DNA from: an uncultured Gammaproteobacteria bacterium
GTDB taxonomy: Bacteria > Patescibacteriota > Microgenomatia > UBA8517
Assembly: GCA_964524515.1 (NCBI GenBank)
Contig: CAZGEA010000001.1
Coordinates: forward strand, 297,522 to 361,521
Direction of reading: 5' to 3'
Length of the DNA: 64,000 nucleotides
Shown: piece by piece, positions 8,694-60,095 of the stretch
Position numbering within the stretch: the stretch's first letter is position 1
How the letters are laid out: every line of letters starts with the position of its first letter
Made by a program: the position numbers and the translations under genes
The notes under the pieces: generated by a model
What the model saw: the letters and a program-made list of their open reading frames with translations, nothing else
Databases searched by the model: none
What the model was told of the DNA's origin: nothing

Positions 8694-9404
8694 GTGAAAA
8701 ATAAATTTTACCCACCAATCTCAATTGTAATCCCTGCATACAATGAAGAAGAAAATATTAAAGAGATACTTTTAAATACAACTAAAAATCTCCCAAAATA
8801 TTTTAAAGATTTTGAAATAATAATTGTCAACGACGGCTCAAATGATAAAACTGGTGAAATTGTTAATAAATTTGCAAAAAATAAAAAATATATAAAAATC
8901 ATCGATCAAAAAAATTCAGGTTATAGTAAAGCAATGCTTGCCGGAATTAAAATTGCATCAAAAGAATTTGTTGCTTATATGCCTGCTGATGGTCAATTTT
9001 TAATTAATGACATGAGGCATTGTTTTGAAGTTATGAAAGAAAACGATTTAATATTAGGATACAGAGGTGGTAGACAAGATTATACAACAAGAAGAGTTAT
9101 ATTCTCATATGGCTACTTATTACTTCTTTTATTAATGTTTGATATTAAATATATGGATGTAGGATGGGTAAACATATGGAAAACCAAAAAAGTACAAAGA
9201 ACTAAACTAACTGCAGTCGGAGGTATTTTTATTCTCACTGAAATACTTGTTCGCTTTAAACAAAAAAAATATAAAATAACTGAAGCCCCTTCATATTATC
9301 ATCCAAGAATTGGCGGTGTTGCTAAAAATGCCAGTTATAAAGTAGTACTAAATACTTTTCTAAATGCAATCAAACTATGGATAAGCTTAAAATTGACAGT
9401 TTAA
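8694..9404 (+). CDS. GT2 polyprenol-phosphate glycosyltransferase (DPM1/GtrB-like)
   Basis: GTG start. The sequence SIVIPAYNEEENI...IIIVNDGSNDKT has the DxD region. There is a C-terminal hydrophobic helix. Confidence 0.75.
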   Translation: MKNKFYPPISIVIPAYNEEENIKEILLNTTKNLPKYFKDFEIIIVNDGSNDKTGEIVNKFAKNKKYIKIIDQKNSGYSKAMLAGIKIASKEFVAYMPADGQFLINDMRHCFEVMKENDLILGYRGGRQDYTTRRVIFSYGYLLLLLLMFDIKYMDVGWVNIWKTKKVQRTKLTAVGGIFILTEILVRFKQKKYKITEAPSYYHPRIGGVAKNASYKVVLNTFLNAIKLWISLKLTV

Positions 9405-9432
9405 TTGTTAATGAATAAGATAAGATTTACAT

Positions 9433-11088
9433 ATGACTCCTGAAATAAAATTTAATGAAATAATAAATTCTCCCCAAGAAAGAATTCTGGACCTTTCAAG
9501 ACAAAAGGATAAAGTCAGAAACATCCCAGTTTGCCTTATTATTCCCCCATCAAGTTTCTTAGCTGACGAGAGAGTCTTTCCATTCTTGGGTATTTTAAAA
9601 GTTGCAGCACAATTGCGTGACAATGGAAACGAAGTTGATGTTATCGATTGTTCTGGATATGGAAACCCGGATGAAATAGTCAAAAAATACATTGACGAAC
9701 ACCCAAGTGTTAAAACATTTGGACTTACTGCAACAACTCCACAAATTGTTTCTTGTGGGAAAATCCTTCAACAAATAAGGGATAGCTCTCATGATTCAAA
9801 AGTAATACTCGGTGGAACACATGCAACACTTACACATGCAGGTTATTTACAAGAATTAAAAACTGGAACTGAGCGCGGTCGAGCAACTGTAGCCTTAAGC
9901 CAACTTAATGAATTATTCGACACAATAGTGGCAGGTGATGGCGAAATGTCGATTTTTTATGCAATCGATAATGAAAATAATCAAAAATTAATCGATGCTG
10001 GCAATTTAAGTTCCCCACTATTTATAAAACGTGGTGAATTAGACCAATACACTCCAGCCGCTAGAGAACTAATTGATCACGAAAGTTACAAATACTACAT
10101 TGATGGCAAAAGAGCAGCAAGTCTAATAGCTCAACTTGGCTGTCCCTTTGAATGTGGTTTTTGTGGTGGGCGAGATTCTCAATTTTTAAGAATGATAAGA
10201 ACCAGAACGATTCCAAATATAATCGATGAAATGGGTCAAATAATAGATTCATCGAAAAATTGGGAGGAACCAATTCGAGCTATTATGTTTTATGATGACG
10301 AACTCAATGTTTCACCTCAAAATCTTGAAAATCTTTGTAAAGCATTGATTGATTACCAAGCTGAGTCTGGTTTAGAACTTCGCTTTAGAGGTTTTGTAAA
10401 AGCTGAATTATTCACCCAAGAACAAGCAAACTTAATGTATAAAGCTGGTTTTAGAGAAGTTTTAAGTGGTGTTGAATCAGGATCAGATCTAATGCTTAAA
10501 GCTATGAGAAAACACACAAGTAGAGACATCAACTCAAGATGTGTTAAATATGCCCATAATGCTGGATTGAATTTTAAAGCATTAATGTCCTTAGGTCACC
10601 CTGGCGAATCATATGAAACAATACAAGAATCAATTGATTGGGTAAAAGATAATTTAAGAGTTGGAGATCAAGTTGATTGGACTGTTATCACAGTTTTCTT
10701 TGGCACTCCCTATTCTGATAGGGCAACATATATAAAAGAAGATGATGTTTGGGTTTATGAAACAAAAGTTTTAGACGATAAAACAAAAACTACAAAAATT
10801 CTTAAACTTTACAGTAAAAGAACCGATCAATTCCTTGACGCCCAATTTTACAAAGGTATTCCAGATGGCTACAAAGCATATGTTTGGACAGATTTCATTA
10901 CTCAAGATGAATTAGTCACTCAAAGAGGAAGAGCTGAAAATGAAACTCGCGCACACTTAAATCTACCCCACATTCAATCAGTTACAGAAATGCAATACGA
11001 ACACACAATGGGTATGCCTGGCAATAGCAATGAAGCGCTTCCATCAAAGATACTTCGATCCTCAAAAACCATCTACTCAGCAAATTAA
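9433..11088 (+). CDS. B12-binding domain radical SAM enzyme (class B radical SAM, putative sugar C-methyltransferase/modifier)
   Basis: The N-terminal region has a B12-binding-like Rossmann fold (IPVCLIIPP...VDVIDCSGYG). The CPFECGFC segment gives a CxxxCxxC radical SAM cluster motif. Total length is ~550 aa. Confidence 0.8.
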   Translation: MTPEIKFNEIINSPQERILDLSRQKDKVRNIPVCLIIPPSSFLADERVFPFLGILKVAAQLRDNGNEVDVIDCSGYGNPDEIVKKYIDEHPSVKTFGLTATTPQIVSCGKILQQIRDSSHDSKVILGGTHATLTHAGYLQELKTGTERGRATVALSQLNELFDTIVAGDGEMSIFYAIDNENNQKLIDAGNLSSPLFIKRGELDQYTPAARELIDHESYKYYIDGKRAASLIAQLGCPFECGFCGGRDSQFLRMIRTRTIPNIIDEMGQIIDSSKNWEEPIRAIMFYDDELNVSPQNLENLCKALIDYQAESGLELRFRGFVKAELFTQEQANLMYKAGFREVLSGVESGSDLMLKAMRKHTSRDINSRCVKYAHNAGLNFKALMSLGHPGESYETIQESIDWVKDNLRVGDQVDWTVITVFFGTPYSDRATYIKEDDVWVYETKVLDDKTKTTKILKLYSKRTDQFLDAQFYKGIPDGYKAYVWTDFITQDELVTQRGRAENETRAHLNLPHIQSVTEMQYEHTMGMPGNSNEALPSKILRSSKTIYSAN

Positions 11089-11089
11089 C

Positions 11090-12107: not shown

Positions 12108-13079
12108 TTGGATTACTATACACTAAACATGAAACAAAAAGCGACAAATCTTTCTTTTATAATACCAGCAAAAAATGAAGACGGCTCAATAAAAATTTTG
12201 ATCAACGAAATTTTAAAGGTTACAAAAACTCTTAAAAAAAGTTACGAAATAATCGTAATTGATGATGGCTCAACGGACAAAACATACGAAGAAGTACTTA
12301 AAATACACAAGAAAAATAAAAAAATAAAAATAATTAAACTAAGAGGAAATTGGGGAAAATCAACTGCATTGCAAATTGGTTTTGGTTATGCAAAAGGTGA
12401 AATCGTATTTACAATGGATGCAGATCTTCAGGACAATCCGAAGGAAATTCCAAATTTTATTAAAAAAATAAACGAAGGCTATGATTTAGTTAGCGGATGG
12501 AAAAAAAATCGACACGATCCAATATCTAAAGTTATACCATCTAGAATTTTAAATAATATTCTAATACCATTTGCGACCGGTGTTAAATTGCACGATAACA
12601 ATTGTGGTTTTAAAGCATATAAAGCAGAAGTAATTAATAATTTAAACTTATATGGTGAACTTTATAGATTTATTCCAATCCTAGCATCAAAACAAAATTT
12701 TAAGATTACAGAAATTGTAGTAGATCATAGACAAAGAAAATACGGAAAAAGTAAATTTGGATGGGAAAGAAACCTAAAAGGATTTCTTGACTTAATAACA
12801 ATCGTTTTCTTGACAGGATATTCAAAAAGACCAGCACATTTTTTTGGAACAATTGGTGTGCTATCATTTCTGCCAGGATTTTTTATTGGAACATATTTAA
12901 CATATCTAAGAATTACGACAGGTGGAATAGAGTTTCACTTACCACTATTAATTTTAGGTCTACTACTTATGATGATCGGTGTTCAACTAATTACAACTGG
13001 TTTAGTTGCAGAGATGATTACAAATTACAGTCTTGCTTCAAAAGATTTAAATAAAATTATAAAAATAAAAAATATTTAA
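12108..13079 (+). CDS. polyprenol-phosphate sugar synthase (GtrB/ArnC/DPM1-type GT2 with C-terminal TM helices)
   Basis: LSFIIPAKNEDGSI...IIVIDDGSTDKT...DADLQDNP...SGWKKNRHD is the canonical GtrB/ArnC signature. Two C-terminal TM helices follow. The ORF opens with TTG at 12108; an ATG at 12129 (MKQKATN) is the more likely start. Confidence 0.85.
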   Translation: MDYYTLNMKQKATNLSFIIPAKNEDGSIKILINEILKVTKTLKKSYEIIVIDDGSTDKTYEEVLKIHKKNKKIKIIKLRGNWGKSTALQIGFGYAKGEIVFTMDADLQDNPKEIPNFIKKINEGYDLVSGWKKNRHDPISKVIPSRILNNILIPFATGVKLHDNNCGFKAYKAEVINNLNLYGELYRFIPILASKQNFKITEIVVDHRQRKYGKSKFGWERNLKGFLDLITIVFLTGYSKRPAHFFGTIGVLSFLPGFFIGTYLTYLRITTGGIEFHLPLLILGLLLMMIGVQLITTGLVAEMITNYSLASKDLNKIIKIKNI

Positions 13080-14221: not shown

Positions 14222-16318
14222 TTACAAAATATAAAATACCTTAAAATGTTTAATGTATTTCAAACATGTGTCAATAGGATTTAAGAATAAATTAATGTAT
14301 CTTGCCTCTTGCCCTACAAAAGGTTCAACAAAATTCCCATTTTTCGGCTGTTCACCAAGATATGAAATTCTCCAATCCTCTGGTAGTGCTGACTTAATTC
14401 TTGTCCAATTCTTATCATCAATAGAAGTCTCATCATATCCTACCAATAAAGGTTTACACTTGACCTTTGTATCGTAATTAATTTCAAGACGCCATAATTT
14501 ATAAATATCGCCTAAATCAAATTTAATTCCATAGTCAGTAAATTTATAATTCGGATCAGAAACCACGCGCTCAACAATACCTTTTTTCAAATATTTTTTA
14601 TCATTTTTCCAAACATTCAATACTGAAACATTATCAACTTTTTCTGAATATACCGGATTAACATATTTATCTAAATATGTATCGTAATATGATCTTTGAT
14701 CCGTGCCATCATAAACTAAAGTGATTGCATACTCACCATTATTTAAATAACCACTTCGATTGGCATTATGAAAATTAATATCAGGCCTAACCCACAATCT
14801 TGGAATATTTGGAATAAGTTCATAAACTAATGACAAATTTGCCCCATATTCAGCATTTTTATTTATCCAAGAAATTCCATATCTATATGGAGCTCCAAGT
14901 GTAAAACCCCAATAAGGAAATTGATTCTCCTTTGCTCCAGACAATCCACCGATTAATTCATTAAAATATTGATTCTCATTTGGATGAATTTGAATCATTT
15001 TTCCAATAAACATATATAATCCAAAACTTAACACTACTAAAAATATAATTTTAGTAACATGTGATCTCATCAAATGAAAAATGAAAGCAGCTCCAATACC
15101 GGCCAAAATTGCAATTGGCGGTATAAATTCCATAATCTGTCTAATACCTCCATATATTGAAGCTCCCTTCCAAACAACTCTAATAATCGGAACTAAAAAC
15201 CATATCAATATTAAAAAGGTTGTAAAATTTTTATCCTTCTTAAAATTCAATAAAAAATATATAAAACCAAAAACTAAAAAAACTAAAATTACTAATGGTG
15301 TTGTGTATAATATCCACTGAATAGGATAAGTTGTAGTTCCAAACGGGCCAAGAAATCTACTCTCAACAATTCCTCCTGTACCAATTGTTTTATAGAAACC
15401 AAAAACTCTTTGAATTTTAGATATTGGATCTGCCCACAAATATGGCCAACTTCCAACAAAAATAAAAATACCAACTAGAAAAGCAAAAACAGAAGAAAAA
15501 ATATACTTAAGAGATTTAAAATACGAAAAATATTCACTTCTATTCACTATTATAAAAATAAGAAACCAAGGCAAAATAACAAATGGAATAAATAAAATAT
15601 TAAATTTAGTTCCCAACGCTAAACCAAAAAACAATCCAGATAAAATAATCCATTTTAAATTTTTATAAACAGTTCCTTTCCAAACAGAAAATATCATAAA
15701 CGCCCAAAATACTGTCTCAGGTATATCTTTCTCGGTATTAAAATGTGATTCTGACCAAAACAAAGGATAACTAGCAAGAAATAAAGCAGCCATTAAACCT
15801 GCAAATCTACCATAAACCTTAGATATCCAATAATAAATCAATCCAACTAAACAAGAAGATAAAAAAACTCCATACAAACGATATGAATCAATATCATTAA
15901 CAATTCTAAGCTTTGCAAAAAATATTCTATTAAATACAGAAGATAAAATATCAGATAATGGAGGATGTCCATCACCATCGATTCTTAAAAAAAAGTCCAA
16001 ATTTTGATCAGTTATTTGATAAACACTCCGAGTAGGAACTTTTTCTTTTGGAATATTTGCATCAATTGCCAAACTATCAGGATTTTGCCAATACCATTCA
16101 TTTTTATTTTCATGATTTTCAAAATACTTTGGAAGATCCAGGTAATCTCTTCTACCTGTTAAAAAATAATGTAGATACGATTGTCCACGAGGAAGATGAT
16201 TAATTGTATCCCAATTAATTCCATAATGAGTTAATGTAAAAGTAAGACCTAAAAAGTATAAAAATCCTAAAAGAAAAGATACAACTAAATCCTTATTTAC
16301 TTTATTATAAAATTGCAT
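14222..16318 (-). CDS. multi-pass membrane protein, putative GT-C-type glycosyltransferase with C-terminal discoidin-like domain
   Basis: 698 aa. The N-terminal ~480 aa form a polytopic membrane region. The C-terminus carries YDETSIDDKNW...EARYINLF, a discoidin-type signature. Confidence 0.5.
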   Translation of the reverse strand: MQFYNKVNKDLVVSFLLGFLYFLGLTFTLTHYGINWDTINHLPRGQSYLHYFLTGRRDYLDLPKYFENHENKNEWYWQNPDSLAIDANIPKEKVPTRSVYQITDQNLDFFLRIDGDGHPPLSDILSSVFNRIFFAKLRIVNDIDSYRLYGVFLSSCLVGLIYYWISKVYGRFAGLMAALFLASYPLFWSESHFNTEKDIPETVFWAFMIFSVWKGTVYKNLKWIILSGLFFGLALGTKFNILFIPFVILPWFLIFIIVNRSEYFSYFKSLKYIFSSVFAFLVGIFIFVGSWPYLWADPISKIQRVFGFYKTIGTGGIVESRFLGPFGTTTYPIQWILYTTPLVILVFLVFGFIYFLLNFKKDKNFTTFLILIWFLVPIIRVVWKGASIYGGIRQIMEFIPPIAILAGIGAAFIFHLMRSHVTKIIFLVVLSFGLYMFIGKMIQIHPNENQYFNELIGGLSGAKENQFPYWGFTLGAPYRYGISWINKNAEYGANLSLVYELIPNIPRLWVRPDINFHNANRSGYLNNGEYAITLVYDGTDQRSYYDTYLDKYVNPVYSEKVDNVSVLNVWKNDKKYLKKGIVERVVSDPNYKFTDYGIKFDLGDIYKLWRLEINYDTKVKCKPLLVGYDETSIDDKNWTRIKSALPEDWRISYLGEQPKNGNFVEPFVGQEARYINLFLNPIDTCLKYIKHFKVFYIL

Positions 16319-23056: not shown

Positions 23057-23812
23057 TCATGAAGATTTTAATCTAGAATCATACTTTTTAGCTAGCTTTA
23101 GTCGATAAAACACCACTAAAGTATCCCAAAGCATTCTAGATATATTTTTAAATGTGGAAGCATGTGTCAAATCATCAAATCTATAAGTTATCTTAATCGG
23201 AGCTTCATATATTCTTTTAAAACCCAAGTAATGTGAAACTGCTAACATTTCAATATCCATTGCATATCTTTCAACCTGAAGTTTAGGTAATATTTTCTCA
23301 AGTACTTTTCTTTTAAATATTTTTATTCCACTTTGTGTATCACGAACATTAATATTAAACAATATTCTTGTGGCCATATGATATCCAAAACTAAAAATCT
23401 TTCTGCCTAATGGATATTCAACTTGGGAAGCAGGATGCCTTTTTGATCCAATAATAATATCAGCATCGTACCATTTCATATGATCCATTAGCATCATAAT
23501 CCCAGATGGCCAAATTTCTCGCCCTGCATCCAAAAATGAAATAATATCTCCTCTACTTCTAAGCATTCCAAATCTAACTGCAAATCCCTTTCCTTTATTC
23601 AAATCATATTTATATACTTTTATTTTTTTACTTTTAACTTTCTTAGCTTTCTCATATGTCTTATCAACTACTCCATCCACAACACAAATTATTTCATAAT
23701 TAAAATTGCTAGGAATTCCTTGATGGAGTACTTTATCAATTGTTCTCAAATCCTTTTCAATCGTCTTTTCCTGCTTATAGGCAGGTATAACAACTGAAAG
23801 TAAATTTTTCAT
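23057..23812 (-). CDS. GT2 glycosyltransferase
   Basis: LSVVIPAYKQEKTI...IICVVDGVVDKT is followed by a FLDAG segment carrying the DxD-type motif. Confidence 0.75.
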   Translation of the reverse strand: MKNLLSVVIPAYKQEKTIEKDLRTIDKVLHQGIPSNFNYEIICVVDGVVDKTYEKAKKVKSKKIKVYKYDLNKGKGFAVRFGMLRSRGDIISFLDAGREIWPSGIMMLMDHMKWYDADIIIGSKRHPASQVEYPLGRKIFSFGYHMATRILFNINVRDTQSGIKIFKRKVLEKILPKLQVERYAMDIEMLAVSHYLGFKRIYEAPIKITYRFDDLTHASTFKNISRMLWDTLVVFYRLKLAKKYDSRLKSS

Positions 23813-49082: not shown

Positions 49083-50630
49083 TTATTTCAGTACTTCAAA
49101 AAACAAAAGATGTTCGTTTGATCCATGTTGAACATATTCACGAACAAAAGGTGGTCTTGTAGCTTTTTTATATGATGCAATTAAATTAAGTCCCAATTCT
49201 GATGGATCACCTGTATATGTAAATCTTGAATCATTAATCACCAAAAAAGTTAAATTCCCGGCATCTCTTGATTCAGCCAAGGGCTTTGGAACTTCATGAA
49301 TGTTTAATCCGATTCCAACAACAATTACTGAATTCAATTGATCTAAATACATTTGTAATCCATCAGGCAAAGTACCAAAATAACCTTCAGTTCCCACAAC
49401 TATTTGTTTATCAGGATTTTTAACATGTAGATCCTTTATATATTCTGAAATTTGTTTTATTCCATTTCCGGCAGTCCACTCTTCAAGATATCCAGACCTC
49501 TCACTTCGCGGTATTGCAGCCCTTTCAAGATCAGTCCAAAAATTAAAAATTGTTACAAAGCTTGATATCAGTAGAACCAAAACCGATATATAAAAAATAT
49601 ATTTAAAATATCTAAGATTTATTAAAATTGAATTCCCTGCCAGTATAATTAAATAAGGTATTGTAAAAAGAATATATCTTGCAGTAAAAACTTTAGCAAT
49701 CGCACTTTCCATAACAATTGGTGTAATAAAAAGAATAAACAAAAAAACATTTTCTGATATATTTCTTTTTTGTTTCAAAAATACCACCAAGGAAAAAATA
49801 GCCAATATTAATACTGGCGCAGGACCCCAAATTCTAATCCATTCAAAACTTCTATCTATTTGCGATACAAATGGATCAAGTGGAGAACTAAATAAATGCG
49901 AAATTGGATAAACGTAATCTAAATTTCTAGAATTTATTAAATTAAAATTAGGACCTAAACGTAAAATATTATACATCGCAAAAGCGATTATCGATGAAAT
50001 TAAATTTAAAACAAAAAATTGAAATCCAAATTTATAAATATTTTTTCGATCAAACGAAATAATAAAACTAAGTGGTGATAATAAAATTAAAAATATAGCT
50101 GGTGATTTTGTAAGCCAAGCAAAACCCAAACAAAATCCAGTAAAAAGTGCAGCATCAATCCTTTTTGTTTTTGCAGTAATTATAGAAAAGAAAATTGCCC
50201 ACGTTCCCCAAAAAGTAAGCATCGAATCAACCAATGCCATTCTGTCAAAAAAGACAAGAAACGGGCAAATCGATGTAATTAAAGCTGAAAAAATTGCTGC
50301 TTTTTTAGATTTAAATAACAAATAAGAAATACTAAAAACCCCCAAAATAGTACCAGTTCCAGTCATTACTGATAAAAATCTTCCAGCAAACAAAGGATCA
50401 GAAAACCTAGAAACCGCAAACATTAAAATCCACATAAAAAATGGCTGTTTTCCATCAGACAATGGCAAAAAACGAAGAGTAGGTTCATGACCCATTACTT
50501 GAGACCATCTAACATAAATAGCTTCATCAGCAAAAACAGGCAGGTAAGTTAAATTAATCGATCTAACTATAAAACCAGATACCAATAAACCAATTAAAAT
50601 AATTAATGTATAAATATAATTTTTTTTCAC
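49083..50630 (-). CDS. ArnT/PMT-like GT-C membrane glycosyltransferase (GT83/GT39-type)
   Basis: FADEAIYVRW is a first-loop DE motif. The protein is polytopic and ~515 aa. Confidence 0.7.
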   Translation of the reverse strand: MKKNYIYTLIILIGLLVSGFIVRSINLTYLPVFADEAIYVRWSQVMGHEPTLRFLPLSDGKQPFFMWILMFAVSRFSDPLFAGRFLSVMTGTGTILGVFSISYLLFKSKKAAIFSALITSICPFLVFFDRMALVDSMLTFWGTWAIFFSIITAKTKRIDAALFTGFCLGFAWLTKSPAIFLILLSPLSFIISFDRKNIYKFGFQFFVLNLISSIIAFAMYNILRLGPNFNLINSRNLDYVYPISHLFSSPLDPFVSQIDRSFEWIRIWGPAPVLILAIFSLVVFLKQKRNISENVFLFILFITPIVMESAIAKVFTARYILFTIPYLIILAGNSILINLRYFKYIFYISVLVLLISSFVTIFNFWTDLERAAIPRSERSGYLEEWTAGNGIKQISEYIKDLHVKNPDKQIVVGTEGYFGTLPDGLQMYLDQLNSVIVVGIGLNIHEVPKPLAESRDAGNLTFLVINDSRFTYTGDPSELGLNLIASYKKATRPPFVREYVQHGSNEHLLFFEVLK

Positions 50631-51379
50631 TTATATCTTCCTAATATGGCATTAATTCTAACTTGTATCAATCCACGAAGCCCAATCCAAGAATCCTTTA
50701 TTGGATTCACACGTCCCTTTACACCCTTTTCTTCCCAAAATACATCAACCTCACTTACACGAAACCCCATCTTACGCGCCAAATAAAGAACTTCTAAATC
50801 AAATCCTGCGGTAACAGTATAACCGTCAATCGATTCCATTTTATGAAGTTCCTTCATCTTGCTAAAAATTTTATTACTTGCAGTTTTTTTGAAAATTTTA
50901 AAACCACATTGTGTATCTTTATATGGCATTCTTAAAATAACAGTTCGCAAAACAACAAAACCCATTGCCATTATTTTTCTAATCAGAGGAGCCCCTTTTC
51001 TTCCAGTCCTTGAACCAATTGCAATATCACTACCCGCATCAATCATCTGTGTTAATTTTTCAATTTGATCAATTGGAGTTGCCTGATCTGTATCAGTAAA
51101 CAAAACCAAATCGCCCTTTGCCTTTAACATCCCTTCAATTACAGTACCAGCCTTACCTCTATGAGGCTCCAAAATTGGATAAAAATATTTATGTTTTTTG
51201 GCAAATTTCTGTAAAAAGTTAAACGTCTCATCAGTTGAGCCATCATCAACCAACAAAACCTCCCAATTATATTTTTGTTTCGATAAATATTGATAAACTT
51301 CATCCAATACACCTCTCTTTAAATTAGACATTTCATTATATGAAGGGACGACAACAGATAAATATATATTTTTATTCAT
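50627..51379 (-). CDS. GT2 polyprenol-phosphate glycosyltransferase (DPM1-like, soluble)
   Basis: LSVVVPSYNEMSNL...VLLVDDGSTDET has the DxD region. It is followed by the TDTDQ region. Confidence 0.8.
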   Translation of the reverse strand: MNKNIYLSVVVPSYNEMSNLKRGVLDEVYQYLSKQKYNWEVLLVDDGSTDETFNFLQKFAKKHKYFYPILEPHRGKAGTVIEGMLKAKGDLVLFTDTDQATPIDQIEKLTQMIDAGSDIAIGSRTGRKGAPLIRKIMAMGFVVLRTVILRMPYKDTQCGFKIFKKTASNKIFSKMKELHKMESIDGYTVTAGFDLEVLYLARKMGFRVSEVDVFWEEKGVKGRVNPIKDSWIGLRGLIQVRINAILGRYK

Positions 51380-51381: not shown

Positions 51382-52845
51382 TTAATTTGTATATCCAAAT
51401 AATGGCTCGGTCAAATTTTGATTCTCACCGCTACAACTTTGATCAATTTTTTTATTCTCATACTTTTTATAGTCAGGCAAAATCAACCCTAATGCACCAA
51501 AACTCTTATCAATTTTATCTACCATACTATGTGGAAATACAATTGTATAAACAGGACTATTACTCGCAGGCAAATTAACATGCATATTCTTAATATAAAA
51601 CAAATACCTATAACCTAAATTATATCCAGGTTGAGTAATATAAGAAATCGAAATACAAGGATATCCATGAATTTTCGAATCTTCATTTATGTAATTTACA
51701 ATCTGTTTCCTTTGAATGTAACCACTTGCATTAATAGGATGGCTTATAAATCTGAAAACACTTACAAAAGATAGAAATAAAACCAAAAATACACCTACTA
51801 ATGATAACTTTTTTCTTCCAAATAAATACAAAATAAACATAACAATAACAAGCATCCACACAAAATTTAAACTATTTAAATAATATTCCGATAAAATTTT
51901 TGAGTAATTAGCAAAAAAAGTAATCACCATTAAAATCCACCCAACCAAAACACTCGCAATATTTTTATTCAAAACTCTTTTGTAAATCAAAAAACCAAAA
52001 AATAATAAAATAATTAATGACGGTAGCCAAAAACTTACATTAAAACTTTGGCCAATAAATAAATTTGTAATATTTTTATATGCTAAATACAAAGTTCTTT
52101 CTAATTTTGTAGCATTATAAACAGTATCGCTTTGCGAAGTTGTAACTGATAAAAATAAATATCTAGATTGTAAAAAATTATTTCTCAACTCAAAAAGAAT
52201 CAATGGTAAAAGACCAAAAAGACTTGAAACAGTAAAATATAGTATAGATTTTTTAGATGGTATCTTTTTAGACAATAAAATAGAAATAAAAACCAAAGGA
52301 ATCAAAAGGATTAACCCCATATTCACATGCCAAATCAAACCAACCAATAATCCAATTAACAAATAACCAAAATTATTATTTTTAAAAATCAAATAAATAC
52401 CATAAAAAAACCAGATACAAAATAATAAAAACAATGGCTGAGTCGGTACTACTTCTCTTTCATTTATTGAAAGAAAATAACTCGTTGAATGAAAAAATGC
52501 AGCCAAATAACCAGCATCTATCGAAAAAATCTTTTTAAAGACAATATAAAAACTAAAAGTTGTTAATGCACCAAGAATTGATACTGCAAAAACTCCACCT
52601 ATTGGATCCATTCCAAACAATAAATAAAATGGGACTAAAAAATAATAAAAATAAGGTCCAATATAAATTCCAGAAGTTGATGTTTCCTGTCCTATTAATC
52701 TAAAATTCCCATGAACAATATCTTTAACAAACCAGCCAATTAAATCTTGGTCATGAGAATATAAAAAAAGATCAGGTGCACGATAAAGTCTAAAGAAAAA
52801 ACTAATTAAAACAAATATTAATATTGGTGTTATAAATTTCTTCAC
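51382..52845 (-). CDS. ArnT-like GT-C membrane glycosyltransferase (paralog 2, divergent first-loop motif HDQDLIG)
   Basis: SHDQDLIGWF...GIYIGPYFYYFLVPFYLL is colinear with 39003, 52842 and 55301. Confidence 0.55.
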   Translation of the reverse strand: MKKFITPILIFVLISFFFRLYRAPDLFLYSHDQDLIGWFVKDIVHGNFRLIGQETSTSGIYIGPYFYYFLVPFYLLFGMDPIGGVFAVSILGALTTFSFYIVFKKIFSIDAGYLAAFFHSTSYFLSINEREVVPTQPLFLLFCIWFFYGIYLIFKNNNFGYLLIGLLVGLIWHVNMGLILLIPLVFISILLSKKIPSKKSILYFTVSSLFGLLPLILFELRNNFLQSRYLFLSVTTSQSDTVYNATKLERTLYLAYKNITNLFIGQSFNVSFWLPSLIILLFFGFLIYKRVLNKNIASVLVGWILMVITFFANYSKILSEYYLNSLNFVWMLVIVMFILYLFGRKKLSLVGVFLVLFLSFVSVFRFISHPINASGYIQRKQIVNYINEDSKIHGYPCISISYITQPGYNLGYRYLFYIKNMHVNLPASNSPVYTIVFPHSMVDKIDKSFGALGLILPDYKKYENKKIDQSCSGENQNLTEPLFGYTN

Positions 52846-54332
52846 AAGCGTATTCTTCTTTGAACAATAATTCCACCAAAACGTGCTTCCTTTTCAACTT
52901 TTCCAATTCCCTCTTGTCGATTAAGCCATGTATTCAGTCTCTCAGGATGTGGCGGATCAACTTCATACAAAGTATATAAAGGACTAATAATTTCAGTTGA
53001 CGGCTCATATCCTTTCACTCTTCCTCCATACCATCTAAACAAATAATCATAAGAATGAGGAATTACTGGGGGAACATAAACATCAACAGAAAACTGCCTA
53101 AAATTTGCATCAGAATAAATCCAATCCATAGCCTTTTTTTGATTACCCAATGCAATTGTCGATTCACCGTCAAGTTTGTCTGAATATCTATTAATTGAAA
53201 GAGCAATATTGTTTCTAAAAAATGCAAAGAAAAATACTAAAACAAAAATTTTACCAAGTCTATATTTCCATATTTGACTAAGCACAATTCCAAACATAAG
53301 AATAAAAATTAAATAATATCCAGTAACATAATAATCATAAAAATTCCCTTCATTTCCTTGAAAAAATAGTATTCCCACATACAAAGTAGTTAAAAATATA
53401 ATTAAAATTCTAGATAATTTATTTTTAAGAAATTTAGGTATATTTATTAGGAAAAATAACAAAACAACAATCAACAATATGTTTTCAAGTTGCCCTCTTG
53501 ATTCAAAAATTTTATTAACAAAAACATCAATATAAAAATTAGTTCTTAATTGAATTATTTTCCAAAAATCAATTTTAAAACTTTGATCTCCAACAAAAAA
53601 TTTAAGAATATTATTTCTAAGTATTCCATCATGCCTTAAATCAAAAACTAAAAGTGGCAAAAACGTTACAAAAAAAGAAACAAAACTTAATAATAAAACT
53701 TTAATTGATGGCCTATTTTTCCAATTAAAAATTAAAAATATAAATATTGCTGGAAAATAGAAAAATTCACCAGATGAACCGAAGTGAAACAATGATGATC
53801 CTGCAATAAATCCTAAAAATATCCAATAGAAGTTGTAGCCCTTCGCAATTTTATATAGACAATAAACAAGTAAAACAGACAACAAAAACATCGGAGTTGG
53901 GTTTGAAAGCCAACGCGAAGAAAGAACAATATTAAATGAAAAAGCACCAACAGCAAGTGCAATAATTCCTGCAGCATTTCCAAACTCACGTTTTCCCAGT
54001 ATATAAACAAAAAATAAACCTAAAACTGTTAGTATTGATAAAAATACTGAGACAAAAACTGGATTACCATTACCCAAGAAATAAGCTGGAGTTATCAAAT
54101 AATAATAAAAAGGGCCCCTAAATATTCCAGCAATTCCAGTTGTCGGTCCAATTAAAAATATTTTTTTGTATTCAATTAAGTCAAAAACTACATTTGCATC
54201 TCTTCCTTGATCAAAATAAAATCCCAACACTTGATCAATTCTATATACACGAAACCACAAAGCAAAAACCAAAATGGTAATCAAAAAAAATGGAATTAAT
54301 AATTTTTTATATTCTATTTTAAATTTCTGCAT
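52842..54332 (-). CDS. ArnT-like GT-C membrane glycosyltransferase (paralog 3)
   Basis: YFDQGRDANVV...GIFRGPFYYYLITPAYFL is colinear with the other paralogs. Confidence 0.6.
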   Translation of the reverse strand: MQKFKIEYKKLLIPFFLITILVFALWFRVYRIDQVLGFYFDQGRDANVVFDLIEYKKIFLIGPTTGIAGIFRGPFYYYLITPAYFLGNGNPVFVSVFLSILTVLGLFFVYILGKREFGNAAGIIALAVGAFSFNIVLSSRWLSNPTPMFLLSVLLVYCLYKIAKGYNFYWIFLGFIAGSSLFHFGSSGEFFYFPAIFIFLIFNWKNRPSIKVLLLSFVSFFVTFLPLLVFDLRHDGILRNNILKFFVGDQSFKIDFWKIIQLRTNFYIDVFVNKIFESRGQLENILLIVVLLFFLINIPKFLKNKLSRILIIFLTTLYVGILFFQGNEGNFYDYYVTGYYLIFILMFGIVLSQIWKYRLGKIFVLVFFFAFFRNNIALSINRYSDKLDGESTIALGNQKKAMDWIYSDANFRQFSVDVYVPPVIPHSYDYLFRWYGGRVKGYEPSTEIISPLYTLYEVDPPHPERLNTWLNRQEGIGKVEKEARFGGIIVQRRIRL

Positions 54333-55300: not shown

Positions 55301-56890
55301 TTACTTTTTTGAATGAACTAATTTATAAATTGTTACCCCATACAAATCCCATTCATTTTCAATTTTGCTCCAACCAAAATTAGCAACTTCAGCTTTTGAA
55401 TTATGAGTTGGATCGCATTTAGATTTATCAAGTTCACATACAACAAATAATTGATTTGCAATTGTCTCATCTGCTTTTTGAGGATCAATTTGAACCAAAT
55501 ATGATCCATTTTTTTCCATAAAATACTGATATGCACCTTCATAATTACGCTCTGCAATAACTGCAAAATTAAAATTTTGACCGTTTGATTCTTCAATAAT
55601 TTTATTAGCTACATCAGCAGATCTTTGAAGTTGTCTATTTGGTGAATATTTAATTGGATTTTCATTCAAATTAACAATAATTAAAAAGATCAAAATGGTT
55701 AATAAAAAAATATTTCCCAACAATTTTACCTTTTTAACATGACCCAAAATTCCACCCAACAATATAAAAAGAGCAGGAGCTAAAAATCCATAATAATGGT
55801 CATATATTTCTTGCTTATAAAGGGACAATCCAACAACTCCAATTCCCAACCATATAAATAAAAATATAAATGCCTGTTTCTCCTTTGAAGTTAATTTTTG
55901 CCTATATAATCCAAATATCCATGCTAGGGCTGCTAAATATCCTACCACCAACCAACCACCAACGTATTCATTTTTTGCAGAAACCAATCTACTTGTTATT
56001 TTATCAAGCTGCGGTATAACTTTTGCAAAACCACTCCATGGTTTAATAGAAACAGTCGTTTGTCGATCAGTAAAGAATTTCTCAATTGCAGAAAAATTTC
56101 GCCAATCATGCCTTGCATCAAATATAACAAGTGGTGACATCAAAAATCCAAATATAAATATTCCCAATAAACTAAATTTCAAAATCCTAAATATTTCTTT
56201 ACTATTTTTCCTATTTTGAATTTCTTTATAAAAGACCAAAAACCAAAAAATCAAAACAACAGGTAGGATCAATAATCCTAAATAATGTGATTGCATTACA
56301 AATGCAAAACTCAAACCAACAATAGGAAGCCAAAAAACCTCTCTATTTTGCCAAAATCTCCATATTCCATAGACAGTCAAAAGTGCAAAAAATGGCATGA
56401 TATTTGGATTCCACGAAGATTTTGTATAAATAATAATAGTAGGAGCTATAGCATATAAAATTGATGCAGCAAAAGCAGCAACTCTACCAAACATATCTCG
56501 TGTGGCATACCACACCAAGAAAATTGTCAAAACTCCAAAAAAAGCAACTAATATAGAAGGGCCAATTGGAGAAAAATTAAACAATAATAAAGCAGGGGCA
56601 ATAAAATAATAATAAAGTGGCCCCAAATACATATTTCCAATTGAAGTTCCAGGGCCCACCAATATGATATCAGCATTTACCAATAATCTTCTAACAACCA
56701 AAGCATCACGACCTTCATCTCCCAAAAAAGTCATATACTCACCAATTCGATAAAATCTAAAAAAGGAACCTATTAAAATTATTCCAACTAAAAACAAAAA
56801 TTCAGTTTTATTATTTTTAATAAACGTCGTACTATTTTTAATGAAACTTTTTATTTTTTGCATTGCTAAATTTACTTTAATTTTACCCAT
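55301..56890 (-). CDS. ArnT-like GT-C membrane glycosyltransferase (paralog 4)
   Basis: LGDEGRDALVV compares with ArnT DETRYAEI. It is followed by GNMYLGPLYYYFIAPALLL. Confidence 0.65.
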   Translation of the reverse strand: MGKIKVNLAMQKIKSFIKNSTTFIKNNKTEFLFLVGIILIGSFFRFYRIGEYMTFLGDEGRDALVVRRLLVNADIILVGPGTSIGNMYLGPLYYYFIAPALLLFNFSPIGPSILVAFFGVLTIFLVWYATRDMFGRVAAFAASILYAIAPTIIIYTKSSWNPNIMPFFALLTVYGIWRFWQNREVFWLPIVGLSFAFVMQSHYLGLLILPVVLIFWFLVFYKEIQNRKNSKEIFRILKFSLLGIFIFGFLMSPLVIFDARHDWRNFSAIEKFFTDRQTTVSIKPWSGFAKVIPQLDKITSRLVSAKNEYVGGWLVVGYLAALAWIFGLYRQKLTSKEKQAFIFLFIWLGIGVVGLSLYKQEIYDHYYGFLAPALFILLGGILGHVKKVKLLGNIFLLTILIFLIIVNLNENPIKYSPNRQLQRSADVANKIIEESNGQNFNFAVIAERNYEGAYQYFMEKNGSYLVQIDPQKADETIANQLFVVCELDKSKCDPTHNSKAEVANFGWSKIENEWDLYGVTIYKLVHSKK

Positions 56891-57576
56891 AATCTAAACA
56901 AATCAATAAAACTTTGAATAATCACATCAAGTGATGCACCAGTTCCATGCCCTTCAACTCTTGGATAATGAGTTGTCGGAATCTCAACAATTGAAAAATT
57001 ATGTTTTCTAGATTTTATTAATAATTCACTACTAATAAATGCACCTCTCTCACTTTCCAATGGTTCAATTGTGTCAATTACTTTCTTAGAAATCAATTTA
57101 AACCCACAATCAATATCTCGAACTTTCAAACCAAATAAAATAAATACAGACATTTGCCAAATAAAAGTATTAATTTTTCTATAAAAAGGAACTTTTCTAT
57201 TTCTATAATATCCAATCACCAAATCAGCATTTGTTTCATTTTGCTTATCTATAAAATTAACAACTTCAGAAAAATCAAATTGACCGTCAGAATCAGTAAA
57301 AGTTATCCATTTATATTTTGAAGTATAAAGTCCGCTTTTAAGTGCTGCTCCATATCCACGATTTGGATCATGGTTAATTATTTTAATATTTTTATTTTTA
57401 TCGACGTATTTTTGAACTACATCTTTAGTTTTATCTTTTGATCCATCGTTTATGATTATTAATTCCCATTTCTCGCTTATTTCAGGCAATATCAAAACTG
57501 CCTTTTCAATTGTTTTTCCAATATTTTTCTCTTCATTGTAAGCTGGAAAAAACACAGACAACTCTTTTATTTTCAT
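56872..57576 (-). CDS. GT2 polyprenol-phosphate glycosyltransferase (DPM1-like, soluble)
   Basis: LSVFFPAYNEEKNI...LIIINDGSKDKT has the DxD region. It is followed by the FTDSDGQ region. Confidence 0.8.
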   Translation of the reverse strand: MKIKELSVFFPAYNEEKNIGKTIEKAVLILPEISEKWELIIINDGSKDKTKDVVQKYVDKNKNIKIINHDPNRGYGAALKSGLYTSKYKWITFTDSDGQFDFSEVVNFIDKQNETNADLVIGYYRNRKVPFYRKINTFIWQMSVFILFGLKVRDIDCGFKLISKKVIDTIEPLESERGAFISSELLIKSRKHNFSIVEIPTTHYPRVEGHGTGASLDVIIQSFIDLFRLWVKLK

Positions 57577-57601: not shown

Positions 57602-58777
57602 TTGAATCCATGTATAATTAAAACAATGCAAAAATCATTAAAGGTTTTCTTAATAATAATTTTTCTTGCAATTGCTCCAATACTTGTTGTTTGGCTTCCA
57701 TTTCTACTTGAAATAAAATCATTTATGGGTATTCCTATTGCTCAAGGTGGATTAAGTGCGATAGTTTCAAATTACGATGGACCACTATATATTGTCATTG
57801 CTAAAACTTTTTATAATTTTGATTTAATCAAAAACTTCCCATTTAGCCTTCCAGTTGAATACTACGCAGCTCACTTTCCACTTTTTCCAATTATAATTCG
57901 CGCTTTTGGGCAATTTACGGGTTATATTTACGGTGGCTTAATTGCAAGCATCTTAGGTTCAATCTTTGCATTAAGTTATTTTTATTTACTTGCAAAAATG
58001 TATTTAAAACCACAAAACGCATTATGGCTTACTGCAATTTTTTCAATTTTCCCTGTTAGATTCTTAATAGTCAGATCAGTTGTCTCCCCTGAAGCATTAT
58101 TTTTAGGTGCTATTATTGCTTCCATTTTTTACTTCCAAAAGAAAAATTATTTTCTAGCAGGAATTTTTGGAGCTATTGCACAAATGACCAAATCTCCAGC
58201 AATTATTTTATTTATCTCATACTTTATTACGATAACTTTTCCATACATTTCCAAAATGGTTATGGGAAAACTTAAAAAAATAGAGCTTTATTCACTCAGT
58301 TCGATCTTTATATTTTTAATTCCCTTATCCTTAGTTTTAGTTTTTGGAATTTATTATTTTCAAATGGGCAATTTCTTTGCTTATTTTAATTCTGGAGATA
58401 ATATTCACTTATTTTTTCCACCATTCCAAATATTTAATTATTCTCAATCTTGGGTCGGTAGCCATTGGCTAGAAGATATAATTTTTATATATTTACTCTC
58501 TCTAACTGGAATCGCCAGCTTATATAAATTAAAAGATAAAGCCATGTTTTATTTTTGTTCTATATTTTTCATTGCAATAATATTTGTTTCCCACAGAGAT
58601 ATTTCAAGATATATTTTGCCAATTACTCCATTTTTATTAATTGGATTATCAAAATTTTTAATCAAAAAACAATTTAAAATAATATTATTAATTCTTTTAC
58701 TTCCAATGCTACTTTACTCCATTGCGTTTATTTCGAACAATATTATGCCAATAGGAAATTGGACACCTCTGCTATAA
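57602..58777 (+). CDS. PIG-V-like mannosyltransferase family membrane protein (GT76-like)
   Basis: NYDGPLYIVIAKTFY...YYAAHFPLFP parallels the WDAxHY...FFPLYP signature also seen in 25049-26230. The ORF opens with TTG at 57602; an ATG at 57626 (MQKSLKV) is the more probable start, with a TATAAT hexamer at ~57612. Confidence 0.45.
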   Translation: MNPCIIKTMQKSLKVFLIIIFLAIAPILVVWLPFLLEIKSFMGIPIAQGGLSAIVSNYDGPLYIVIAKTFYNFDLIKNFPFSLPVEYYAAHFPLFPIIIRAFGQFTGYIYGGLIASILGSIFALSYFYLLAKMYLKPQNALWLTAIFSIFPVRFLIVRSVVSPEALFLGAIIASIFYFQKKNYFLAGIFGAIAQMTKSPAIILFISYFITITFPYISKMVMGKLKKIELYSLSSIFIFLIPLSLVLVFGIYYFQMGNFFAYFNSGDNIHLFFPPFQIFNYSQSWVGSHWLEDIIFIYLLSLTGIASLYKLKDKAMFYFCSIFFIAIIFVSHRDISRYILPITPFLLIGLSKFLIKKQFKIILLILLLPMLLYSIAFISNNIMPIGNWTPLL

Positions 58778-58801
58778 TCTTAAATATAATTTATTCTTAA
58801 T

Positions 58802-58972
58802 ATGACACAGGAAAGATTAAATCTCACAGCTTGGCGTGGAAAAGAATTTCTTCTTAAACTATCAGGAAAAGAGGCAACCAGAAGGATAAAAAGATTTCAA
58901 GAAGATCAAAATCCAAAAATTAAATACGATATTGATAAAATTACTTCTTCTGTTTTGAACCCTTCCAAATAA
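58802..58972 (+). CDS. small lysine-rich hypothetical protein (56 aa), speculative
   Basis: An ATG-initiated ORF, MTQERLNLTAWRGKEFLLKLSGKEATRRIKRFQEDQNPKIKYDIDKITSSVLNPSK, lies in the 164-bp gap and overlaps the 3' end of the downstream minus-strand gene by ~30 nt. Confidence 0.2.
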   Translation: MTQERLNLTAWRGKEFLLKLSGKEATRRIKRFQEDQNPKIKYDIDKITSSVLNPSK

Positions 58973-60095
58973 CCAAGTTATACATCATGTAGTTATATGG
59001 TAGTACTAAAAATGCTACAACAAACAACAAAACCAAAAAATCATATCTAGCTCCAACAATCTTAACTCCAATTGGTCCAACAGTAGATTGAATAATTAAT
59101 GCTCCAACTGAAGTCAAATTAAATTGCAAAAATTTCGATATTATTTTATTAATTCCAGAAATTTTATTATCTTTAAATGTCCAGAAATTGTTAAATGTAA
59201 AATTTGAAACTATTGCAATCTCAGTTGATAAAAGCCATGAAGCAATCTCAGAAAAATTAAGCCCTCTAAATACTCTTAAAAAGATAAAGTTAACCAAAAA
59301 TCCCACAAACCCAACTGTAGCAAATTTTATAAATTTCATTTTATCTTTAATTCCCAAAATAATTGCAACTTTAAAAGTTGAGGTCATTTCATTTGGATTA
59401 AATTTCGACTTTTCTCTTTTTCGCGCCGCAAATTCCAATGGAACTTCAACTACCTTTTTACTATTTTTAATAGATTGATACAGCAAATCAACCTTGTAGG
59501 CAAAACGCTTTAGTTCCATTAAATTATCAAGATCAATTTTATCCAAAACACCATTTACTCTTGTTAATCTAAAGCCAGTAGTTAAATCGTGAATTGAAGG
59601 TTTAAGTAAAACCATTCTTATAAACAAATTCCCAAAAAAACTAATTGCTTTTCGGCTAATTGCCCAGTCAGCAGGAACAGAGCCACCTTTAATATATCTT
59701 GAACCAATCACATAATCTGCTCCATTTAAATATGCTTGAACCATTGGTGGAACAAATCGTGGTGGATGTTGAAAATCAGCATCCATTTCCATAACTGCAT
59801 CTGCATGTATTTCACCAATTGCATATTTCATTCCACGAACATATGCCATCCCCAGTCCTGCTTTTTCTCCTTGTAATAAATAAATCTTTTTTTGCTTAGA
59901 ATTAAACTTTTTCATATATTTTTTAACAATATCTCCGGTTCCATCAGGTGAGTTATCATCAACTACAAGAAGCTTCATGTCAGCATTAATTTTTGGAAAC
60001 TCTTCCAAAACTAATTTTTCTATCATTAAAGAAATGTTTTCTTTTTCGTTGTATGTGGGAATTATTACAACGACTCTATCTTTTGAAGTATTCAT
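58941..60095 (-). CDS. polyprenol-phosphate sugar synthase (DPM1/GtrB-type GT2) fused to C-terminal GtrA-like membrane domain
   Basis: VVVIIPTYNEKENI...LLVVDDNSPDGT has the DxD region. It is followed by the MEMDADFQHPP region. The C-terminal ~120 aa have 4 TM helices with a GtrA-like FATVGFVGFLVNF...FTFNNFWTF pattern. Confidence 0.8.
   Translation of the reverse strand: MNTSKDRVVVIIPTYNEKENISLMIEKLVLEEFPKINADMKLLVVDDNSPDGTGDIVKKYMKKFNSKQKKIYLLQGEKAGLGMAYVRGMKYAIGEIHADAVMEMDADFQHPPRFVPPMVQAYLNGADYVIGSRYIKGGSVPADWAISRKAISFFGNLFIRMVLLKPSIHDLTTGFRLTRVNGVLDKIDLDNLMELKRFAYKVDLLYQSIKNSKKVVEVPLEFAARKREKSKFNPNEMTSTFKVAIILGIKDKMKFIKFATVGFVGFLVNFIFLRVFRGLNFSEIASWLLSTEIAIVSNFTFNNFWTFKDNKISGINKIISKFLQFNLTSVGALIIQSTVGPIGVKIVGARYDFLVLLFVVAFLVLPYNYMMYNLVIWKGSKQKK

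Follow-up and report, generated by a model that had tools for sequence, protein, structure and literature searches.

The DNA examined here is a 64,000-nucleotide stretch (positions 297,522 to 361,521 of the forward strand of contig CAZGEA010000001.1, assembly GCA_964524515.1; hereafter the window, counted from its first letter) of a genome deposited under the name of an uncultured Gammaproteobacteria bacterium, but placed by GTDB in the Patescibacteriota (Microgenomatia, UBA8517), that is, in the candidate phyla radiation (CPR). The window has a guanine-plus-cytosine (GC) content of 26-30% (~28% overall), is gene-dense with the minus strand predominating, and encodes a bacterial TrmD. Pfam scans of all 55 open reading frames (ORFs) of at least 100 amino acids revealed that glycosylation machinery makes up nearly all of it: fifteen glycosyltransferase family 2 (GT2) proteins, five GT4 proteins, ten glycosyltransferases of the GT-C fold matching PMT_2 and two Wzx-like flippases, accompanied by several methyltransferases, sugar-nucleotide dehydratase and epimerase genes, a B12 radical-SAM enzyme, a polysaccharide deacetylase and a DedA/VTT protein. 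When within-window BLASTP is considered in addition to Pfam, the number of GT-C genes rises to at least 12 and probably 14. CPR genomes are tiny, around 1 Mb, and ~64 kb of this one are devoted to surface glycosylation.

Five of the fifteen GT2 genes are located at 8694-9404 (A), 12108-13079 (B), 50627-51379 (C), 56872-57576 (D) and 58941-60095 (E). A sequence-only reading of the window had identified them as five polyprenol-phosphate sugar synthases that provide donors for the GT-C enzymes. All five are present, each matching PF00535 with E-values of 1e-24 to 1e-32, and the core of that reading holds for them by homology, acceptor half and fold; their count, however, has to be extended by a sixth and divergent candidate at 23057-23812. 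Taking these lines of sequence-derived evidence together, we consider it likely that A-E, and perhaps also 23057-23812, are polyisoprenyl-phosphate glycosyltransferases of the DPM1/GtrB/ArnC clade, which supply the GT-C enzymes of an extracytoplasmic glycosylation locus.

The five genes had been recognised by a DPM1/GtrB/ArnC-type GT2 signature, which is indeed readable in all translations (IPAYNEEENI, VNDGSNDKT and PADGQF in A; IPAKNEDGSI, IDDGSTDKT and DADLQD in B; VPSYNEMSNL, VDDGSTDET and DTDQAT in C; FPAYNEEKNI, INDGSKDKT and DSDGQF in D; IPTYNEKENI, VDDNSPDGT and DADFQH in E). This signature is not discriminating, however, as it is also carried by the ten other GT2 proteins of the window. 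Hidden Markov models (HMMs) of the N-terminal half and of the acceptor half, each built from PfDPMS, GtrB and ArnC only, were scored on the GT2 proteins of the window. With the N-terminal-half model, the ordinary GT2 protein 37451-38350 reached 52.9 bits and thereby outscored C (47.9 bits) and E (45.9 bits), so the N-terminal signature is unspecific. The acceptor-half model yielded 75 bits for B, 39 for E, 26 each for D and C, 6.9 for 23057-23812 and 5.1 for A, and at most 1.0 for the nine other GT2 proteins. Within-window BLASTP drew the same line: similarity among the six candidates spans ~150-280 residues (the shortest stretches being those of A with B, C and E), whereas similarity between the candidates and the other GT2 proteins ends after ~60-145 residues. 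The NCBIfam models for ArnC, AglJ and PpgS gave no match to any of the nine ordinary GT2 proteins at 1e-8, and a match of 37451-38350 to the PgfS model is confined to its N-terminal 108 residues.

The hallmarks of polyprenyl-phosphate glycosyltransferases comprise an Arg following strand beta-5 (R122 in GtrB, R117 in PfDPMS), an amphipathic interface helix with R131 and S135, an acceptor loop containing a second Arg (R200/R202) and a second amphipathic helix (PMC4728340, PMC5526996). The Arg at the R122/R117 position binds the lipid phosphate and is described as universally conserved (PMC4728340). All these hallmarks fall in the C-terminal half of the enzymes. Segments equivalent to the interface helices align in B, C, D and E. 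Kyte-Doolittle profiles and hydrophobic moments indicate two transmembrane (TM) helices for B, four for E and none for A, C, D and 23057-23812. The earlier description, according to which two of the proteins are soluble and two carry C-terminal TM helices, is therefore wrong: B alone has such helices, and the set consists of three TM-less proteins (four with 23057-23812), one protein with two TM helices and one GtrA fusion. The Kyte-Doolittle peaks of A, C and D amount to at most 1.63. In these three proteins as well as in 23057-23812, the only hydrophobic peaks coincide with the first, internal interface helix, the helix at the C-terminus is amphipathic, and the chain ends just past the second interface helix. 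In this they resemble human DPM1 and also a truncated PfDPMS without its TM domain, which stayed membrane-bound and active (PMC5526996).

E (minus strand, 384 amino acids) consists of a GT2 domain (PF00535) followed by a four-helix TM domain of the GtrA/DPMS type (PF04138 at residues 257-377, 53.5 bits). The archaeal-like GtrA fusion that had been claimed for this gene is thus confirmed, and the layout is that of PfDPMS. Comparison with PfDPMS (PDB 5MLZ) yields 146 bits, with residues 7-357 of E aligned to residues 24-354 of the chain, all four TM helices included, and 34.6% identity over 327 residues. E shares 68-78% identity with many proteins from Candidatus Woesebacteria and other Patescibacteria, its family being known from groundwater and similar samples. 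By these relatives, the window comes from a CPR bacterium of the Microgenomates group, namely a Candidatus Woesebacteria genome. Relatives of E are named dolichol-phosphate mannosyltransferase by source annotation. For the type-III DPMS enzymes, a paper of 2026 lists as criteria the motif 89-DADxQHPP-96 (x being Leu, Phe or Tyr), SRY (R117), R131, S135 and K178 (KIL), which bind the lipid phosphate, the polar-pocket residues N248 and N277 and the gating residue F338; it proposes a flipping role for the TM domain of PfDPMS and concludes that type-III enzymes occur in archaea only, all of them hyperthermophiles (PMC12992685). The E family departs from this confinement, as it is found in Woesebacteria and other Patescibacteria. 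Among 120 aligned members, DADFQHPP, SRY, G122, R131, S135, F177, R202 and K208 are invariant apart from single substitutions; within DADxQHPP, little or no variation is seen at D, A, D, Q, H and the first P, and 116 of the 120 have Phe as x. The Asn residues of the TM domain are likewise kept, N277 in all 120 sequences and N248 in 118. The position of K178 is taken by Ala in 111 of the 120, and an invariant Lys follows at a distance of two residues (F-A-Y-K); an alternative MAFFT alignment pairs Lys with Lys. The alignments of E with PfDPMS end at chain residue 354, that is 20 residues before the chain end and also when the TM domain of E is used alone, and do not cover the Phe338 region; the tail of E contains no [FY]-x-x-N. 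Judged by these residues, the E family has most of what defines a type-III enzyme and was said to be exclusive to archaea, which is the most interesting point of the finding. E is probably a polyprenyl-phosphate mannose synthase with GDP-mannose as the most likely donor, since it has retained both DPM1-type motifs, DADxQHPP and SRY, along with the residues by which the lipid phosphate is held.

The start of E abuts a gene for a Yip1-domain membrane protein (60100-60663, minus strand; PF04893). The same adjacency occurs in loci L002 and L003 (9441-10001); in a related Woesebacteria genome, the last base of the Yip1 gene is the first base of the E-type gene, suggesting a functional link.

C (minus strand, 250 amino acids) is a TM-less synthase whose best match among the structures in the PDB is PfDPMS (66.6 bits). 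It belongs to a large family, with 7,657 matches among 8,000 candidates scored and with members in many CPR lineages. JGI or NCBI annotation gives several of its relatives the name dolichyl-phosphate beta-glucosyltransferase, by which C can be called ALG5-like. Invariant elements of the family include D-x-D-Q-A-T-P, IGSRxGRxG and DTQCGFK, of which the last is presumably typical of ALG5 and serves here as a lead rather than as a test. The stop codon of C and the start codon of the GT-C gene 49083-50630 (minus strand; PF13231 and PF02366) overlap as GTGA, which points to translational coupling, and orthologues of this GT-C gene lie downstream of C-type genes in CPR loci. The operon continues with a further GT-C gene at 47332-49056 (minus strand; weak PMT_2 match to PF13231, 24 bits), orthologues of which follow the 49083-type gene in most CPR loci, and ends with a candidate Wzx-like flippase of the MOP family (45832-47328, minus strand; PF13440, 176.7 bits), whose position is kept in L026, L033 and L043.

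A one-genome-per-species scan with the C-family alignment returned 80 loci. In CPR loci with enough flanking sequence, the C-type gene is preceded in 28 of 30 cases by a 55301-type GT-C gene that ends no more than 250 bp upstream, and is followed in 25 of 27 by a GT-C gene at most 3 kb downstream; in both exceptions to the latter, a GT-C gene overlaps the end of the C-type gene. The recurring CPR operon comprises an E- or D-type synthase gene, a GT-C gene of the 55301 type, the C-type synthase gene, a gap of 1-2 kb, a GT-C gene of the 49083 type and one or two of the 47332 type, to which L026, L033 and L043 add the Wzx-like gene and a multi-TM gene without assignment. Gottesmanbacteria and others have an E-type gene directly before the 55301-type GT-C gene, and other Woesebacteria keep the order TrmD, (Yip1), E, a 9-TM gene on the opposite strand, D, GT-C, (DHH), GT-C, C, GT-C. 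Outside CPR, a PMT_2 gene follows the C homologue in one Dehalococcoidia and one Brocadiia locus, and a GT87 gene lies nearby in one locus. Our literature searches for accounts of such a locus type in Woesebacteria or other CPR bacteria brought up nothing relevant.

Eleven of the loci (L009, L010, L013, L017, L018, L022, L024, L027, L028, L033 and L035) come from records titled 'uncultured Gammaproteobacteria' or 'Pseudomonadales', yet carry the CPR-type operon of Woesebacteria and Gottesmanbacteria. Their C-type gene is 39-50% identical to C, and the taxonomic labels look wrong.

D (minus strand, 234 amino acids) is another TM-less synthase, which matches GtrB with 56.8 bits (residues 5-181) and ArnC with 53.5 bits (residues 3-209), and shares 37% identity with B and 32% with A. 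It overlaps by 19 nucleotides with the GT-C gene 55301-56890 (minus strand; PF13231), whose orthologue is found immediately upstream of the C-type synthase gene across CPR. The order of D followed by the 55301-type GT-C gene is kept in L001, L002, L006, L026, L033 and L043. Two additional GT-C genes, 51382-52845 and 52842-54332 (both minus strand; PF13231), lie between D and C and are paralogues of the 55301-type gene. A search of PDB sequences with the GT-C protein 55301-56890 gave no match.

Two 9-TM proteins without Pfam match, encoded at 57602-58777 (plus strand) and 25049-26293 (minus strand), are paralogues with 26% identity. In several CPR loci, the 57602-58777-type gene is conserved divergently upstream of the pair formed by D and its GT-C gene. 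The gene 25049-26293, which has a GT4 gene and wzx as its neighbours, occupies the place at which a polymerase of the Wzy type would be expected.

By sequence, A (plus strand, 236 amino acids) is the weakest case. It is a TM-less synthase candidate with PADGQF in place of the D-x-D motif and is 31.6% identical to D over its full length (E-value 5e-38). An AlphaFold2 model of A (mean predicted local distance difference test (pLDDT) score of 92.9) places interface helices at residues 132-149 and 215-235. When this model was compared to the PDB with Foldseek, the top 22 matches were all ArnC, PfDPMS or GtrB, aligned over ~230 columns, most with TM-scores of 0.74-0.79 and the older GtrB crystal chains with 0.62-0.69. 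A search among 1.84 billion representative proteins for relatives of A retrieved full-length homologues with 30-38% identity that are fused to PMT_2 (P0407, P0454), to GtrA plus PMT_2 (P0510) or to GtrA (P0435). Other relatives are fused to an LPG-synthase TM domain (P0505) or to polysaccharide deacetylase domains, and the set of fusions also lists P0427, P0474 and P0486. The GT2-GtrA-GT-C fusion unites a whole three-component system in one chain and provides strong circumstantial evidence for the role of the A subfamily. The earlier claim that the synthases feed GT-C enzymes is supported on two grounds, namely by the synteny with GT-C genes that is conserved across CPR and by the GT2-GT-C and GT2-GtrA-GT-C fusions among relatives of A.

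The PADGQF motif is invariant in 25 of 25 A orthologues aligned; Pro replaces the first Asp of D-x-D, and GW replaces GF. The gene next to A (9433-11088, plus strand) encodes a B12-binding radical-SAM enzyme and is conserved beside A in Woesebacteria GW2011_GWB1_43_14 (L004, 9586-11193). In L004, the radical-SAM gene is accompanied by a nucleotidyltransferase gene and a gene for a fused aminotransferase-methyltransferase, a combination suggestive of an unusual modified sugar.

The tight coupling of each TM-less synthase to a particular GT-C gene and the existence of GT2-GT-C fusion proteins would also be compatible with the idea that several synthases make the same lipid-linked sugar, each being dedicated to its partner GT-C, rather than several different donors, all the more as donor specificity is not readable from sequence. 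We nevertheless regard this explanation as quite improbable. The paralogous synthases are just 25-37% identical to one another in within-window BLASTP, they represent separately conserved families with distinct donor-site motifs (DADFQHPP, DTDQATP, DSDGQF, PADGQF and DADLQD), and source annotations give these families different names. As to the identity of the sugars, for which Man, Glc or a HexNAc had been suggested, a sequence-based case can be made for mannose in E, but specific sugars have no sequence support in the other synthases.

B is an ArnC/GtrB-type polyprenyl-phosphate glycosyltransferase with two C-terminal TM helices and is encoded on the plus strand. Its start is most likely the ATG at 12129, which gives a protein of 316 amino acids (12129-13079), and not the TTG at 12108 of the ORF list. 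B matches ArnC with 156 bits and GtrB with 126 bits, in both cases over the full length and including the TM helices. With the NCBIfam ArnC model NF007986 it scores 182.6 bits, far under the equivalog cutoff of 529, and B consequently shares the architecture of ArnC but is no ArnC orthologue. An Arn-like pathway around B is not supported: the deacetylase encoded at 20511-21314 matches only generic polysaccharide deacetylase models, and ArnA, ArnB or ArnE/F were not recognised near B. The block containing A and B is kept in L004, in the order A, radical-SAM, GT2, B, GT2, and is located there between two large GT-C genes. In the window, the corresponding flanks are formed by 4282-6549 (minus strand; PMT_2/PMT, PF13231 and PF02366), which has a 727-amino-acid homologue at the same position in L004, and on the opposite side by 14222-16318 (minus strand; PMT_2, PF13231), with a homologue of 676 amino acids in L004.

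The sixth candidate, 23057-23812 (minus strand, 251 amino acids), is a TM-less GT2 protein encoded inside a Wzx-type polysaccharide cluster and is the least certain of the six. Its best match in the PDB is PfDPMS (60.5 bits), the NCBIfam PpgS model matches over the full length, PgfS is matched as well, and comparison with D and C yields 76.6 and 73.2 bits, respectively, over ~205 amino acids. An AlphaFold2 model (pLDDT 90.2) shows interface helices at residues 135-152 and 221-250, and its top 25 Foldseek matches in the PDB are exclusively PfDPMS, ArnC and GtrB. In its family of 78 aligned sequences, D-x-D is replaced by an invariant D-A-G-x-[D/E] and S-R by S-K, and the acceptor loop is not conserved. 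A decayed pseudo-enzyme was considered and rejected, as the unusual motifs are invariant in all 78. For the genomic context, 80 loci were recovered (L089-L168), and gene order was taken from the long loci listed. In most of these, the gene directly follows the Wzx-type gene in a block composed of GT2, GT4, a Wzy-like 9-TM protein, Wzx, the 23057-23812 type, GT4 and DUF5667. The protein 23057-23812 could make a donor for side-chain addition to the polymer of this cluster, and could equally be an ordinary repeat-unit transferase with retained lipid-binding helices.

The same question may be asked for other TM-less members of the set. Some of them, above all 23057-23812 and possibly A and D, might be ordinary peripheral GT2 enzymes that extend an undecaprenyl-diphosphate-linked repeat unit of a Wzx/Wzy pathway, having kept the helices of the DPM1 clade, and would then make no monophosphate donors. 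The location of 23057-23812 next to the Wzx-type gene of a polysaccharide block and not next to a GT-C gene in the long loci listed agrees with this idea, and so do the invariant Gly at its metal-binding Asp, the Lys at its R117-equivalent position and its non-conserved acceptor loop. PAD in place of DXD in A, the Tyr at a conserved Arg position in the D family, and the weak acceptor-half scores of A and 23057-23812 point in the same direction. However, the best fold matches of the models of A and 23057-23812 are exclusively polyprenyl-phosphate enzymes, D lies directly upstream of a GT-C gene in all loci compared, and fusions to GT-C and GtrA domains occur among the relatives of A. Moreover, the deviant motifs are invariant within each family, which indicates selected variants, and possibly a variant chemistry, rather than decay. 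On balance, a role of these proteins in repeat-unit assembly appears unlikely to us, and we continue to prefer their assignment as donor synthases.

Several further observations weigh against this assignment. At the residue level, D-x-D is present in B, C, D and E, but A has the invariant P-A-D (and GW for GF) and 23057-23812 the invariant D-A-G-x-[DE]. The R117/R122 position is occupied by Arg in E, C and A, by Lys in B and 23057-23812 and by Tyr in the D family; a second Arg three residues on (R125 in GtrB) is kept in A, B, C and D. The E and A families have an invariant acceptor-loop Arg (R200/R202), and B and most of the D family have it as well, but it is not conserved in the families of 23057-23812 and C, the latter having no clear equivalent. 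A, B, C, D and 23057-23812 all deviate at residues reported as essential or universally conserved in characterised enzymes, and membership in the clade consequently rests on fold, context and overall similarity rather than on a full set of catalytic residues; it is on these grounds that we infer a synthase function for A, D and 23057-23812. Furthermore, A and 23057-23812 reach just 5-7 bits on the reference acceptor-half model, and none of the synthases reaches any NCBIfam equivalog cutoff. The best PDB sequence match of A is the N-terminal region of chondroitin synthase, with PfDPMS aligning over residues 8-211 of A, and both AlphaFold2 models were built from family-rich alignments, which biases them towards the present fold. 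The link between C-type and GT-C genes is inconsistent outside CPR and is absent from the Acidobacteriota loci checked (L044, L050, L061), in which the neighbours are unrelated. Finally, the window has neither a stand-alone GtrA ORF nor intergenic room for one, its only GtrA domain being the one fused to E, and this leaves the flipping of four or five of the products unexplained.

Apart from the operons described above, the window contains a tandem array (28162-36684, minus strand) of four GT-C paralogues (at 28162, 29795, 31501 and 34972, with PF13231 matches), which share 28-33% identity in within-window BLASTP, together with a 9-TM protein without assignment and a VTT/DedA-family gene at 34458-34997 (minus strand; PF09335). 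In total, GT-C genes are located at 4282, 14222, 28162, 29795, 31501, 34972, 39003, 47332, 49083, 51382, 52842 and 55301, with weaker cases at 844 and 7103. Two of the clear ones, 29795-31498 and 39003-40523, were added as paralogues by within-window BLASTP, which also detected 7103-8677 and the N-terminal part of 844-3465 as weak paralogues. The gene 844-3465 (minus strand) encodes an 873-amino-acid membrane protein with this GT-C-like N-terminal part and a C-terminal carbohydrate-binding domain of the F5/8 type C (discoidin) family. At 62984-63820 (minus strand), a cellulose/chitin-synthase-like GT2 protein, which may be truncated or split, aligns with the 168-position Pfam GT2 profile in the C-terminal part only, from position 77 onwards. 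The NCBIfam scan returned nothing for the GT-C genes or the uncharacterised membrane proteins of the window, and relaxed Pfam scans gave nothing usable for seven multi-TM proteins without assignment and for the small non-membrane ORF 61402-61734.

Homology, predicted fold, motif conservation, gene order and fusions are compatible with the following pathway (the enzyme activities, lipid carrier, sugars, flippase and final acceptor being predictions). At the cytoplasmic face, each synthase would move one sugar from a nucleotide sugar to polyprenyl phosphate, the carrier presumably being undecaprenyl phosphate. Four architectures would serve this reaction: E with its own GtrA-like domain, B with two TM helices, C as a TM-less ALG5-like enzyme, and D and A as a TM-less pair that shares x-x-D-G-Q-F. 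The TM-less enzymes may be held on the membrane by their two amphipathic interface helices, as are human DPM1 and truncated PfDPMS. After flipping, for which the TM domain of E and the two Wzx-like proteins are candidates, the lipid-linked sugars would serve the many GT-C enzymes of the neighbouring genes as donors for glycosylating an extracytoplasmic acceptor. The DedA family includes undecaprenyl-phosphate transporters, and the DedA-family protein 34458-34997 may return the carrier lipid (phosphate) to the cytoplasmic face.

The donor synthases represent the entry points to this surface chemistry. The analysis singles out the candidates for this role among the fifteen GT2 proteins and shows which GT-C genes accompany them, and this provides targets for studying the surface chemistry of uncultivated episymbionts. 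In the subfamilies distinguished by an invariant PADGQF or DAG-x-[DE] motif, the chemistry may depart from the D-x-D mechanism of the textbooks. Layout and nearly all signature residues of type-III enzymes are common in bacteria, as the E family demonstrates, which bears on the published distribution claim as well as on the proposed flippase role. A bolder scenario, which we put forward tentatively and would not yet favour, is that the E family is a true bacterial type-III mannose synthase with a product-flipping GtrA-like domain, abundant in mesophilic CPR bacteria and encoded by the lead gene of a conserved operon with DPM1-like and ALG5-like synthases and several PMT-like GT-Cs. Such an operon could be a bacterial counterpart of the archaeal and eukaryotic lipid-monophosphate-sugar branch, with the TM-less synthases perhaps acting as physical partners of the GT-Cs, as is suggested by the natural fusion proteins. 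If true, a bacterial type-III family would contradict the 2026 conclusion that these enzymes are confined to hyperthermophilic archaea (PMC12992685).

Each of the candidates has counterparts among known enzymes. In E as in the type-III enzyme PfDPMS (PDB 5MLZ, 5MM1, 9EP0), the GT2 domain comes first and four TM helices come after it; PfDPMS is also the solved structure that C and 23057-23812 match best. Unlike PfDPMS, E belongs to a mesophilic low-GC CPR bacterium and not to a hyperthermophilic archaeon, has Ala for K178 with a Lys two residues later, and would act on a bacterial polyprenol rather than on dolichol. This does not make E a new kind of enzyme, because the GT2-GtrA architecture is already visible for bacteria in domain databases and JGI annotation. 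B corresponds to GtrB (Synechocystis sll0501, PDB 5EKE/5EKP) and ArnC (Salmonella, E. coli; PDB 9BHC, 9HWJ) in length and in the combination of a GT-A domain with two juxtamembrane and two C-terminal TM helices, and has DADLQD and the acceptor-loop Arg, but differs from GtrB by a Lys at the R122 position. The TM-less proteins A, C, D and 23057-23812 end past the second interface helix, similar to human DPM1, the subunit responsible for catalysis in type-II DPMS (which was compared by published descriptions only), and mycobacterial PpgS. In contrast to DPM1, no DPM2/DPM3-like or GtrA-like partner gene was recognised in the window, and the matches to the NCBIfam PpgS model are weak, with 35-51 bits versus a cutoff of 370. 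By the annotation names of its relatives, and not by sequence comparison, C can be likened to ALG5 and archaeal AglK-type synthases, which make dolichyl-phosphate glucose or GlcNAc. ALG5 has an N-terminal membrane anchor, which C lacks.

At the level of the whole locus, the closest parallel is provided by three-component systems such as GtrA/GtrB/Gtr* and CsbB/GtcA/YfhO, in which a cytoplasmic polyprenyl-phosphate sugar synthase and a flippase cooperate with a GT-C enzyme that uses the lipid-linked donor on the outside (PMC11127046, PMC8035078). The same logic is apparent here, as the synthase genes C and D overlap with GT-C genes and as P0510 combines all components in a single protein. Different from these systems, the window has six synthase candidates and at least thirteen GT-C candidates, its only GtrA domain is fused to E, and most of the synthases are TM-less. 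Taken together, the best-supported interpretation is that the locus is not a new system, but an unusually expanded case of the known three-component scheme that is conserved across CPR bacteria.

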